From assembly GCA_963666285.1 (NCBI GenBank), contig OY762711.1: a stretch of DNA of 64,000 nt; one strand, 5' to 3'. Of the stretch, positions 6,929 to 46,354 are shown piece after piece. A program made the position numbers and the translations under genes. Each line of letters begins with the position of its first letter. Position 1 is the stretch's first letter. Below the pieces are notes generated by a model. The model was not told where the DNA came from and did no database searches. It was given only the letters and a program-made list of their open reading frames with translations. This DNA comes from Sedimentisphaerales bacterium (GTDB lineage Bacteria; Planctomycetota; Phycisphaerae; Sedimentisphaerales; SM23-30).

Positions 6929-7356
6929 GTCATGATTTCCTGTTGCTATTACTTCTGATCGAATGTGCGTTTTAGTATTTGGCAAATACTAAAACTGTTA
7001 AATAGTGTATTTTAATAATTTTAACTGAATGATTATAGACATAAAAATCTGTCAAAACCTAAGAAAAAATAAAAATATTAAAGATAAGTTCGATGTTTTT
7101 AACATTTAGTTGCAATTTTAATATTGGCCCAGATAAGGACATTCGACGACATGTATTTATGTAAGTCATTTTATTTTTAGCAATTAGATTGGCAAAGGCA
7201 AGCTAAAGCTGTTGGCCCAATACCTGCTAATAATTGTAGGTATTAGTTAAAAAGATTAGCAATAGTCTGCCTGTTAAAACATACCATTTAATTTTTTCGG
7301 TAAATCGGTACTGGTCTCTTTAATAATAAGCATAAGTTGTTTTTTGTATAAAATAA

Positions 7357-42957: not shown

Positions 42958-44016
42958 CTATTCTTTTAATGGGATATTTTTATTTCTGGAAACTAAATTA
43001 TTTTGCGCAATAGCAATGGCTTTATGTAGTTTTTCCAGAATGAGTTTTTTGGGTGGTAGTGAAGTCATGTAGTCCGCAACTTTTATATTACTCTTGTGTA
43101 ATTGCAATAATTCGATATGTTCCGGATTTTTACCTGTACATAATATAAGTCCAATAGGAGAATTTTCGCCTTCAATTGTTTCATATTTTTCAAGCCATGC
43201 CAAGTATAGTTCCATTTCACCTTTAAAAGCAGCGTCAAATTCTCCGATTTTTAAGTCTATGGCGATTAATGATTTAAGTCGGCGGTGATAAAATAATAAG
43301 TCAATGTAATAGTCCCGGTCATCTATTGTGATTCTTTTTTGCCTGGCTAGAAAGGCAAAGTCAGAACCTAATTCTATTATAAATTTTTGTAATTCAGCGA
43401 TTATGGCAGATTCCAAATCTTTTTCCGAATATGTATCACGCAGTTCAAGAAAATCTAAAAAATACGGATCTCTAAAAACAAGATCAGGAGTAATTTGATG
43501 GTTATCTTTAAGTTGTTCCAAATCTTTTCTAATCGTATCTTCCGGTTTTTTACTTATGGCAGTTCTTTCATACAGCATCGAGTTAATTCGTTCTCTGAAT
43601 GTTCTGACGCTCCATTTTTCTTGTATACACATTTCAATATAAAAAGAACGTTTAAGCTGGTCTTCAATCGGGAGAATTGCCAGAAGGTGTGTCCAGCTTA
43701 AATGTCGTATCAGTGATACGACAATTTCCCTGTCTGGAAATATAGCGGAAAATTGTATCATACGTCTAAGGTTTTTTTCTGAAAAAGAGCTGCCATATTC
43801 TTTAGAAAGATGCTTTGCGAGAGATGATACAATTTGTTTGCCGTATTCTGCGCGTTTGTCTAATAATACTTCATCGTTAACTCTTTTACCAATTTGCCAG
43901 TAAAGCATTGTCATTGAAGTATTTATTGAAAGTGCTAAATTTTGCTTACACCTATTAATCAGTGTTTTGATGTCATTAAGTACTTCTAATTGTTTGTTAA
44001 TATTGTTACTCATCAA
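42958..44016 (-). CDS. DUF1016/YhcG PD-(D/E)XK nuclease family protein
   Basis: YWQIG, LSWTH, DPYFLDFL, ELGSDFAFLARQ and IDLK. Confidence 0.95.
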   Translation of the reverse strand: MMSNNINKQLEVLNDIKTLINRCKQNLALSINTSMTMLYWQIGKRVNDEVLLDKRAEYGKQIVSSLAKHLSKEYGSSFSEKNLRRMIQFSAIFPDREIVVSLIRHLSWTHLLAILPIEDQLKRSFYIEMCIQEKWSVRTFRERINSMLYERTAISKKPEDTIRKDLEQLKDNHQITPDLVFRDPYFLDFLELRDTYSEKDLESAIIAELQKFIIELGSDFAFLARQKRITIDDRDYYIDLLFYHRRLKSLIAIDLKIGEFDAAFKGEMELYLAWLEKYETIEGENSPIGLILCTGKNPEHIELLQLHKSNIKVADYMTSLPPKKLILEKLHKAIAIAQNNLVSRNKNIPLKE

Positions 44017-44235
44017 ATGTTATAGTGCAAGTATGTTTATAATAGTATGCAAGCCTAAAATTATCATTATATATTAACTAAAAATAGGATAAATGTAAAC
44101 TGGCGAGTTTTTGGTGTTGGTTGGGCCTACCGATGTAAGAGTTTGTGTAATAGATAATTAGGTTGTTTTTCGCTGAAAATGGAATATAATTTGAAATATA
44201 ATGTAACCAAGCTCGACTAAGGATGTGTAAAACAA

Positions 44236-45174
44236 ATGGATAACAATCCTCTTCCAAATCTGGACAGCAGCCCGGAGCTTCGCGAGAAGCTGCTAGCTGA
44301 ATGCCGACTTCGGCCAGGTGAAGTATGGGTATGTCCGGAGAGTAAGCATCGGGTAGGTTGCCTTGATGCGGCGGATAGCCACCAGGTGAGTGAACTAGCA
44401 GCCGGTAATAAGATATCCCTGGCAGTGCACGATCCGCCGTATAATCTGGTTGTTTTTGAAGAGCGCACAGTCGGGGAATTTATCGACTGGTGTAAAAAAT
44501 GGGTTGGTAATACTGTGGGGCATCTGGCAGTTGATGCCTCTGTTTATTTCTGGCTGGGTGCAGACCAGAACGATGGTTTTCAGCCGCTGCCGGAATTTAT
44601 GATTATGATGCGCGACTTTGCAGATCTGCAAAGTCGTTCTTTTATTACGATGCGAAATCAGCGAGGATACGGCACACAGAAAAACTGGATGGCAGTTCGT
44701 CAGGAGTGTTTGTATTATGTTAAGGGCGGCCCGGTTTTTAACGTGCAGTATACCGATATCCCGAAGGTGCTGAGGGGCTATTATAAAGAGGTCGGGGGTA
44801 ATGTTACCGAGAATATCGAGCGGAGCAAGTCGGAGAATATCCGGGCGAGCAATATCTGGATAGATATTCAGCAGGTGTTTTACCGTATGCAGGAGAATGT
44901 CAGCGGATGTTATGCGCAGAAGCCGCTGAAGGCTATCGAGCGGCTGGTATTGGCCAGCAGTAATGAAGGTGAGGTTGTGGCAGACTTTTTTGCGCATGCC
45001 GGGACGACTCTTATCGCGGCGGAAAAGCATGGGCGGCGGTGTATAACCTGCGATATCGACCCGATATACTGCGAGATGACGATACGGCGACTGGAGCATT
45101 ATCGCAAGACGGGTGAAGAAGGTTGGCAGAATGGGAATTGTTTCAATTTGGATGATATCCAAATTGAAAAGTGA
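44236..45174 (+). CDS. N4/N6 DNA methyltransferase, beta class
   Basis: DPPY precedes DFFAHAGTT; QKPLK..ERL. Confidence 0.9.
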   Translation: MDNNPLPNLDSSPELREKLLAECRLRPGEVWVCPESKHRVGCLDAADSHQVSELAAGNKISLAVHDPPYNLVVFEERTVGEFIDWCKKWVGNTVGHLAVDASVYFWLGADQNDGFQPLPEFMIMMRDFADLQSRSFITMRNQRGYGTQKNWMAVRQECLYYVKGGPVFNVQYTDIPKVLRGYYKEVGGNVTENIERSKSENIRASNIWIDIQQVFYRMQENVSGCYAQKPLKAIERLVLASSNEGEVVADFFAHAGTTLIAAEKHGRRCITCDIDPIYCEMTIRRLEHYRKTGEEGWQNGNCFNLDDIQIEK

Positions 45175-45202
45175 AGAACTCCTATGAGAAAAATGGTGAA
45201 AT

Positions 45203-46354
45203 ATGAGTGAAGAAATTATCAAACAGGACGTGGTAAATGATCAATTATTTGATCGAGTTGTATCTATTTTAGAGCAAGCCAGAGCTAATATAGTTCGCTC
45301 GGTTAATCATAATATGGTGATTGCTTATTGGCTAATTGGTCGAGAAATTGTGGAGGAGGTGCAAAAAGGTGAAAAACGGGCTGATTATGGCAAAAAAAAT
45401 GTGGCAAATTTGTCAAAACAGTTGAGCAATAAATACGGTAAAGGATTTTCTATAAGCAACTTAAAGTATTTTCGTCAATTTTTTATTGCTTTTCAGGATA
45501 GATTTCAAATTGGCCACCCGACGGGTGGCCAATTGAATGATATAGAAATCAGCTACCCAACGGGTGGCCAAATGTATGATGGAGCCTTAAATACAAAAGG
45601 TGTAAAAGGTTTTTCGCCTGAACTGTCATGGTCACATTATCGTGCTTTGATGAGGGTAACAAATATTGATGCTCGTGACTTTTATGAAAAAGAGGCTATT
45701 GAGTGTGGTTGGACTAAATTGCAATTGGAGAGGCAGATTCATACATCATATTATGAAAGAATTTTGAGTCATAAAGGAAAGAAAGGGCTGCTGCCGGTAA
45801 ATCGAGAAAGGTTAGCCGGAGAGCAGGCAAATGCTATTGATATAATCAAGTCACCATTTGTTCTTGAGTTTTTGGATTTACCTGATTCTCCATCGATGCG
45901 TGAAAATGATATTGAGCAATTGATAATAAACAATCTGCAATCATTTCTGTTGGAGTTAGGTAAAGGTTTTTCTTTTGTGGCTCGTCAGAAACATATTAGA
46001 TTTGACGATGATGATTTTTATCTGGATCTGGTATTCTATAATATCATTTTGAAATGTTATGTGTTGGTCGATCTAAAAATTGGAAGGCTAACTCATGCTG
46101 ATGTTGGACAAATGGATGGTTATGTAAGATTGTTTGAAGATAAGTTTAAGGTTGAAGGAAATAATCCAACTATTGGACTAATTCTGTGTTCGGATAAGAG
46201 TGAGACTGTGGCTAAGTATTCAGTCTTGAGTGAGTATAAACAAATCTTTGCATCGAAATATTTGAAGTATCTGCCGTCGGAAGAAGAACTGAAAAGAGAA
46301 GTTGAAAAAGGACTCAAATTGATTGAGAATTATAAAGCTGAAATAGAAGAATAA
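45203..46354 (+). CDS. DUF1016/YhcG PD-(D/E)XK nuclease family protein
   Basis: YWLIG, LSWSHY, ELGKGFSFVARQ, VDLK and GQMDGY. Confidence 0.95.
   Translation: MSEEIIKQDVVNDQLFDRVVSILEQARANIVRSVNHNMVIAYWLIGREIVEEVQKGEKRADYGKKNVANLSKQLSNKYGKGFSISNLKYFRQFFIAFQDRFQIGHPTGGQLNDIEISYPTGGQMYDGALNTKGVKGFSPELSWSHYRALMRVTNIDARDFYEKEAIECGWTKLQLERQIHTSYYERILSHKGKKGLLPVNRERLAGEQANAIDIIKSPFVLEFLDLPDSPSMRENDIEQLIINNLQSFLLELGKGFSFVARQKHIRFDDDDFYLDLVFYNIILKCYVLVDLKIGRLTHADVGQMDGYVRLFEDKFKVEGNNPTIGLILCSDKSETVAKYSVLSEYKQIFASKYLKYLPSEEELKREVEKGLKLIENYKAEIEE

Follow-up and report, generated by a model that had tools for sequence, protein, structure and literature searches.

Why should a nuclease gene carry, within its own codons, a DNA palindrome whose sequence differs from that in its neighboring homolog? 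The question is raised by two genes of the YhcG/DUF1016 family in a 64,000-nucleotide (nt) stretch (the window) of contig OY762711.1 of a Sedimentisphaerales bacterium (GenBank assembly GCA_963666285.1). The initial annotation of the window described a 27-nt palindrome in each gene. Both palindromes are real, with 12 of 13 pairs in gene 1 (43700 to 43726, minus strand) and 13 of 13 in gene 2 (45508 to 45534, plus strand) around one base; the peptides given for them (IVVSLIRHL and IGHPTGGQL) and their common codon phase are correct, as is the description of a tandem copy at 45547 to 45573 as degenerate (8 of 13 pairs). Their location, said to be equivalent, is so if the helix before the palindrome is the reference point (centre 13 to 14 codons after F88) but not if the LSW motif is, the distance from the palindrome centre to the W codon being 18 nt in gene 1 versus 108 nt in gene 2. 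The arms, said to be unrelated, do differ in sequence but have in common the A/T ends and, mostly, the CA-(C/G)-TG core seen family-wide. We read the palindrome, with a probability of roughly three in four, as the site that the protein itself binds, passed on together with its reading head, a reading based on covariation across the family and on predicted structures.

DUF1016 loci were drawn from relatives, the phylum, GTDB genomes, metagenomes, and viral contigs. Because two of the searches contributed the best 80 of about 580 matches each (plus 20 further matches from the phylum search), the sample leans to the subfamily of gene 1. The scored set comprised 271 distinct genes having both anchor motifs, with 2708 equal-sized windows elsewhere in the same genes and 2710 synonymous recodings as controls. 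The excess of palindromes across the family that the initial annotation had suggested looking for is present: an odd-centred linker palindrome with at least 11 of 13 pairs occurs in 202 of the 271 genes but in 1.4% of the control windows and 0.8% of the synonymously recoded sequences, and one with at least 10 of 13 pairs occurs in 239 (3.5% and 4.5%, respectively). The centre falls on codon position 1 (phase 0) in 234 of these 239, and the lower threshold is reached by 67 of the 72 genes of named phylum (16 phyla). Counting base positions (j) outward from the palindrome centre, the arms pair in 85 to 98% of 225 distinct units at j2 to j9, compared with 27 to 65% from base composition, and the central base is C or G in 205. 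The core is a 19-bp palindrome with A/T flanks, its register is kept over the 16 named phyla, and 46 different half-sites occur among 101 fully paired sites. Tandem copies are present in 19 of the 239 genes, and arrays reach 4 to 5 sites. Among close protein homologs (120, of which 101 have the anchor motif), 77 peptides permit fully palindromic coding versus 29 after column shuffling, and residue swaps are DNA-complementary (e.g., Y/C, A/W, and V/I). The covarying arms and these complementary swaps bear out the earlier proposal that the symmetry of the DNA, not the peptide, is conserved.

The covariation extends beyond the symmetry itself, in that the arm bases are tied to residues outside the palindrome, a tie that the initial annotation missed. 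Couplings corrected by average product correction were computed for residues outside the palindrome codons in 202 genes with the commonest linker length, and the strongest were 111-j4, 84-j6, 108-j3, 80-j7, 84-j5, and 136-j3. Paired base j7 tracks residue 80, j6 and j5 track residue 84, j4 tracks residue 111, and j3 tracks residues 108 and 136 together. R80 is accompanied by G in 51 of 57 genes, R84 by G in 64 of 71, H84 by T in 43 of 46, Y84 by C in 21 of 22, and R111 by C (G on the other strand) in 48 of 49; the couplings resemble direct readout, with arginine opposite guanine. Phylogeny was controlled for with a FastTree tree of residues 150 to 335 from 200 genes (2 short ones excluded) and with 100 non-overlapping pairs. 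Each variable base changes 39 to 59 times on this nuclease-part tree, and for each of 84-j6, 108-j3, 111-j4, and 80-j7 the residue is the top-ranked of 315 for its base in the 100 independent pairs (p 3e-13 to 2e-8), with 136-j3 ranking 11th. A candidate coupling of 137 with j2 was dropped at rank 216 of 315 in independent pairs, with too few changes.

The residue-base code is predictive. With training genes less than 70% identical to the held-out gene, the base was predicted correctly in 164 of 184 cases at j7, 142 of 158 at j6, 150 of 162 at j4, and 154 of 160 at j3 (89 to 96%), against baselines of 119, 65, 73, and 63. The code from the 202 genes, applied to 56 de-duplicated genes of other linker lengths, gave 156 of 196 correct versus 91 shuffled (j3 38 of 38, j7 28 of 29, and j4 33 of 43), and, for units located over 12 residues ahead of W, 99 of 127 versus 57. 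Bases j3 to j7 are unchanged in 15 of 15 independent pairs having five identical reading residues, and four-fold degenerate positions are identical at 50 of 52 places in the site versus 886 of 1411 elsewhere. In a set of 36 non-independent close pairs (nuclease-part identity above 85%), the five residues are common to both members in 23 of 23 pairs with the same site and differ in 12 of 13 pairs with different sites.

The residues concerned fall in a domain that is predicted to resemble that of ParB. For a single-sequence model of the N-terminal part (predicted local distance difference test, pLDDT, 76.6), the top three VIA-align matches were ParB-parS 6s6h (Z 8.2, root mean square deviation [rmsd] 3.4, 112 aligned), Spo0J 1vz0 (Z 7.7, rmsd 2.9, 103 aligned), and KorB-operator 1r71 (Z 7.3, rmsd 3.5, 108 aligned). 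The top ten Foldseek rows were ParB or Noc, none with an E value of 0.001 or less, and a PDB search with a sequence profile returned only E values of at least 0.13. A ParB-type arrangement, a helix-turn-helix (HTH) plus subsequent helices, fits the predicted model, the Z scores of 7.3 to 8.2 being middling. Weak alignments to Bacillus subtilis Spo0J and to the ParB of this genome place K80 and R84 in the recognition helix, match T108 and L111 with the G and R of the GHAR helix, and assign V136-R137 to the SVR helix; R84, T108, and L111 are thereby aligned to ParB N178, G201, and R204. According to Jalal et al. (PMC7383237), three helices touch parS, equivalent to the recognition, GHAR, and SVR helices; N178, G201, and R204 contact parS, and position 201 switches specificity. 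On the predicted ParB/Noc/KorB-type domain, the five coupled residues are mostly at or next to DNA-contact positions of ParB, and covariation at these equivalent positions supports the self-target or operator that the initial annotation listed among its possibilities. A homodimer model formed through helix 4-48 scored 0.66 (best control, 0.00); in the benchmark, scores this high were obtained for 20 of 30 solved pairs and for 1 of 23 single chains. Contact agreement between runs was at least 97%, and the pLDDT was at least 72. The C-terminal part matches the NucS/EndoMS-type nuclease 2vld (Z 11.7, rmsd 2.6, 107 aligned), and all 200 full-length genes retain catalytic E214, D238, and K255, with D/E253 in 199 of 200; by fold and active-site motif this domain is a PD-(D/E)XK nuclease, for which cleavage is predicted.

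If the palindrome is the cognate site, each monomer of the predicted homodimer would read one half-site in duplex DNA, and the site would be hidden within codons that specify the connector helix linking the two reading helices. Reader and site, contained in a span of about 200 bp, could therefore change or recombine as one unit; such joint change would give paralogs different self-codes, and the variable codes would stop paralogs from silencing one another. A dimer bound to its own gene may repress or restrain that nuclease gene under any host promoter, so that an in-gene operator would allow a solo nuclease gene landing in unrelated operons to limit itself. Negative autoregulation of the intact nuclease gene is the least certain step, for which, given binding, we would offer slightly less than even odds. 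The likeliest role given binding is autorepression, followed by a DNA tether or antidote and, last, cutting for mobility.

The tether would have the docked nuclease silent on its own binding site and freed when the site is lost or degraded, as by element loss or phage attack. It has the binding step in common with the reading of the palindrome as a cognate site, its share of the probability lies within the share given to that reading, and it seems unlikely as the principal role. The invariant catalytic residues are in keeping with it, as are the listing of the family by PADLOC as defense candidate PDC-S02 (a candidate label), the enrichment near inversion-targeted and type I restriction loci (PMC9881135), the arrays of up to 4 to 5 sites, and the presence of the family on 518 plasmid records and in 70 viral loci; one site binding one dimer, though, would be a weak sink unless expression were repressed too, and site-less genes exist. 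A speculative extension, about as doubtful, is that DUF1016 is a self-licensing nuclease, silent only while the barcode in its own codons is present, with the DNA site itself as the antitoxin, reader and barcode diversifying as an overlapping protein/DNA cassette, and unrelated mobile DNA-binding families, RhuM among them, sharing the design. If true, self-licensing would constitute a new class of addiction or defense module, and nature would have supplied a library of codes for protein-DNA recognition.

Copies of the site beyond the linker also bear on the binding-site reading. Extra copies matching the gene's own site are found at 38 of 239 loci versus 9 for shuffled sites, 25 of them in a second helix 108 to 111 nt upstream and the rest upstream or downstream of the gene. 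A second site at that upstream distance, in a different helix, scores at least 7 of 9 in 57 of 201 genes; it resembles the site of its own gene (10.6 versus 9.2 of 16) and obeys the code above shuffle, though less well (35 of 55 and 108 of 183 versus 25.5 and 80.8). Perfect own copies lie outside the reading frame upstream of the gene in locus L035 and downstream in L165, and near-perfect ones lie at the 5' end in L011, L219, and L220. Site-like palindromes in other reading frames were also noted in L047, L055, and L079, at 56 nt ahead of the W codon, and in L008, L124, L126, and L265; one other-frame palindrome overlaps recognition-helix codons, in genes with a weakened usual site.

Packing inside the protein could mimic such a code, because the same bases encode residues 98 to 103. 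An improbable rival holds that template switching alone (quasi-palindrome correction) keeps the palindrome and diversifies the peptide, the coupling being protein-internal packing. Quasi-palindrome template-switch hot spots undergo concerted changes in both arms, as here; unlike here, they have no tie to a reading protein and no fixed codon across phyla. The high arm pairing, two-arm changes between close alleles (L100 versus L102), the tandem copies, the C or G centre that inversion predicts, and a bias toward the right arm at j3 and j4 all fit template switching, which nevertheless leaves unexplained why the coupled residues lie on the DNA-contact helices of ParB and why the code holds in variable-length inserts, in the second-helix site, and in noncoding copies. 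The absence of change in the 15 pairs with stable reading residues and the maintenance of one arm mismatch across alleles 6 to 15% apart also speak against it. Packing is unlikely to be the whole story, because the code transfers across linker lengths and to the second helix site and because copies exist off-frame; template switching probably helps new specificities to arise, both arms together.

Slightly less probable again is a recombination or insertion site that the nuclease cuts or nicks to move or shuffle the gene or its specificity cassette. In the pairs L187/L222, L091/L221, L233/L242, and L208/L220, the nuclease part is 86 to 93% identical, codons from about 60 to 110 are only 50 to 70% identical, and readers and sites differ, which suggests exchange or fast change of a specificity cassette. 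Recombination would account for this local drop in identity (as in the first three of these pairs) and for the occurrence of tandem, off-frame, and displaced units; selection on specificity, however, also predicts local divergence, the site lies mid-gene rather than at element ends, routine cleavage would destroy the gene itself, and no conserved recombinase or partner was seen, though none was looked for. The constancy of j3 to j7 in independent pairs with identical reading residues leaves the diversifying or insertion site named in the initial annotation at most a secondary role. Locus L279 (G127:C43:19000-32500) holds 4 to 5 DUF1016 genes or fragments with different sites in 13 kb, and 14 genomes have at least two different sites (identical ones would have been merged in this count). 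An mRNA hairpin acting in translation pausing, decay, or attenuation, the remaining earlier suggestion, is very improbable: both window sites do fold as RNA (z -3.85 and -5.77), but a one-base centre is best (202 genes at 11 of 13 or better versus 168 and 90 for three- and five-base loops and 1 to 2 for even centres), there is no G-U excess (mismatches A-C 43 and G-T 39), a hairpin would not require its sequence to track residues outside it, and Rfam returned only two subthreshold snoRNA matches, taken as chance.

Several results weigh against the palindrome being the cognate site of its protein. Thirty-two of the 271 genes score 9 of 13 or less, several lacking a site altogether. Residue 115, which has no known contact, likewise couples strongly in independent pairs; j5 is weakly predicted (89 of 167 held-out cases, 53%); and the 84-j6 rule did not transfer to other linker classes (24 of 43 versus 21 shuffled). 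Where the arms disagree, the right arm fits the code more often at j4 (20 versus 8) and j3 (17 versus 8), with no arm bias at j7 (5 versus 5) and j6 (10 versus 11), and internal packing could contribute to the covariation. The off-frame test of the code was small (9 of 12 versus 6.1, p 0.06), upstream palindromes as a set match their own gene no better than chance (8.1 versus 6.5, shuffle maximum 9.4), and alternative sites that would compensate for a decayed main site amount to no more than a trend (13 of 29 versus 49 of 172, p 0.086). Neither window site has a second copy near gene starts or elsewhere in the genome. The ParB register comes from weak alignments (E 0.84; hhalign probability 9%), with Z scores that are middling for a helical domain.

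In the window, the two DUF1016 genes lie on opposite strands flanking a DNA methyltransferase gene, and their proteins are 36% identical. Gene 1 (42958 to 44013, minus strand; 351 amino acids from ATG; PADLOC PDC-S02) encodes, from the N to the C terminus, a predicted dimer helix, a ParB-like DNA-binding domain (DUF1016_N), and a PD-(D/E)XK nuclease (YhcG_C). Its palindrome has the half-site GTCGTATCA and centre C and is the putative cognate site of protein 1; the encoded peptide corresponds to the predicted connector helix 95-104 between the two reading helices. The bases agree with the code (K80-C, R84-G, L111-A, and T108+V136-T). On the same strand, codons 79 to 91 (43741 to 43779) encode the predicted recognition helix of the HTH, which contains the reading residues K80 and R84, codons 108 to 111 (43681 to 43692) supply T108 and L111, and codon V136 of the WSVR helix (43606 to 43608) predicts base j3 jointly with residue 108. 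The place of the second site of relatives, 108 nt upstream (43808 to 43834, minus strand), here encodes IVSSLAKH and is non-palindromic. Gene 2 (45203 to 46354, plus strand; 383 amino acids) lies between the methyltransferase gene and a gene of the asparagine synthase family, in the same orientation as both. Its recognition-helix codons (45452 to 45481) supply S and Y as equivalents of residues 80 and 84, and its LSWSHYR codons (45623 to 45643) supply S and R as equivalents of 108 and 111. Its palindrome, with half-site GGCCACCCG and centre A, is the putative cognate site of protein 2 and matches the code trained on other genes at 3 of 3 testable bases; the degenerate tandem copy, also on the plus strand, has 3 mismatches against its 18-base core. 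Pfam scores for DUF1016_N and YhcG_C were 158.6 and 161.5 bits for gene 1 and 136.1 and 181 bits for gene 2 (cut-offs about 33), and no NCBIfam model matched either protein.

The intervening gene (44236 to 45174, plus strand) encodes an N6/N4 DNA methyltransferase. A partnership with it, or a type II restriction-modification pair, was rejected because a homolog is present in just 5 of 267 DUF1016 loci, 2 of these being the window locus; other methyltransferase families were not searched. A promoter scan gave 22 weak sites (shuffle mean, 11.5), none usably placed on either palindrome. Other palindromes in the window include a near-perfect even-centred 26-mer inside the methyltransferase gene (44612 to 44637), also terminator-like by score, and a near-perfect 27-mer with a one-base centre at the 3' end of that gene (45142 to 45168), 35 nt ahead of gene 2, both unlike the DUF1016 sites, as well as a 13-of-13 palindrome with a one-base centre at 6969 to 6995, outside open reading frames (ORFs) of at least 120 amino acids. 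GC skew is positive, strong, and sustained over positions 1 to 52000 (cumulative +4.2 over the window).

The 6.35-Mb genome (G000) contains 73 one-base-centre palindromes with at least 12 of 13 pairs, 10 of them with 13 of 13. All 4 of its DUF1016 genes carry a palindrome of at least 12 of 13, no two alike in sequence but all in one codon phase, and the sites of two paralogs differ at only 3 of 18 bases. The search for arm matches proposed in the initial annotation found the tandem copy and one paralog and otherwise chance-level matches only, so that each of the 4 sites is in this sense single-copy; no further targets of the 4 sites above chance were found genome-wide. An identity as repeats of the repetitive extragenic palindrome (REP) or miniature inverted-repeat transposable element type was rejected, as the site is without many near-identical genomic copies. 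The 4 gene copies sit in unrelated surroundings, namely, the methyltransferase and asparagine synthase genes, a DnaB-like helicase gene, and an adenine phosphoribosyltransferase-like gene (for the helicase and phosphoribosyltransferase, identities come from reading of the ORFs). A 13-of-13 palindrome just beyond the stop codon of the DUF1016 gene on contig C4 (50141 to 50167) is of a design unlike the site of that gene; its assignment to an ORF6N gene was wrong, there being no ORF of that kind there. Dispersed REP-like palindromes are found on contig C1: an odd-centred family with CTCAAACTGACC arms (at least 12 copies, including 11215, 636595, 1085012, 1580559, 2345045, 3592895, and 4546790), which adjoins short hexamer-like repeats, and an even-centred family with CACATCATTGGA arms (more than 20 copies).

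A sample of 151 genomes of this phylum yielded DUF1016 matches in 43, and there are at least 8000 homologs; the viral loci were found with a 25-row alignment, a two-sequence alignment having given no relative. In the unrelated RhuM family, a 27-nt one-base-centre palindrome of at least 10 of 13 is present in 21 of 22 genes with the motif, among 30 loci (L301 to L330, with L309 at G000:C1:648298) and with no shuffle control, with a fixed phase, variable arms, an A/T centre, and a consensus unlike that of DUF1016. RhuM gene L326 has tandem units. The RhuM palindromes suggest the same design and that the design is general. DUF1016 and RhuM have been noted beside inversion-targeted genes (PMC9881135), and the domain is merely labeled in PMC11341870; no description of a palindrome in the coding sequence of either family was found in the literature covered, in which subscription papers are few and supplements absent. 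DUF1016, a very common family without a known function, would gain a predicted DNA target readable from each gene; a single oligonucleotide per protein would then suffice to test binding, regulation, and what triggers the nuclease. Because each gene would be a matched protein-site pair, the family would supply, from nature, a code linking residues to bases in the ParB fold, a matter for which two specificities (ParB and Noc) have been examined to date, and a clear case of one sequence under selection both as protein and as the site of that same protein.

Both window proteins are members of YhcG/DUF1016 (PF17761 and PF06250; COG4804), for which an E-D-E(I/L/V)K nuclease and an N-terminal domain of unknown fold were predicted (PMC1189080); the family literature covered mentions no palindrome, no DNA site, no ParB-like fold, and no function. 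ParB-parS and Noc-NBS share with DUF1016 the predicted DNA-binding fold and a palindromic site, which in DUF1016 would likewise be read with two-fold symmetry through contacts by the recognition helix plus two later helices, and in ParB/Noc a few residues switch specificity, among them G201, which is aligned to DUF1016 residue 108 (PMC7383237). DUF1016 differs from ParB in having a PD-(D/E)XK nuclease after the DNA-binding domain and no CTPase domain ahead of it, the DUF1016_N match beginning at residue 14 or 19 with one long helix as the sole part before the HTH; there is also no multi-site array of the ParABS kind and no ParA-like ORF among the immediate neighbors scanned. Its site is unlike parS in being odd-centred, about 19 bp long with A/T flanks, translated within its reader, and highly variable, and it occurs once or a few times per gene rather than chromosome-wide. 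A parS site lies within B. subtilis spo0J, of which our literature search found no account. KorB-OB (RK2/RP4) and SopB-sopC, as DUF1016 would, pair a ParB-type regulator with an odd-length site, and KorB reads its 13-bp site via T211 and R240, outside the HTH and next to the central pair (PMC3597684); the spacing of 29 residues between them equals that of T108 and R137 in DUF1016, a correspondence of distance, not of alignment. KorB differs in having regulon-wide sites and no nuclease, and no covarying site in its own codons is described in the available part of that paper (PMC3597684). DUF1016 likely works like a ParB/KorB operator system, yet stands outside ParABS.

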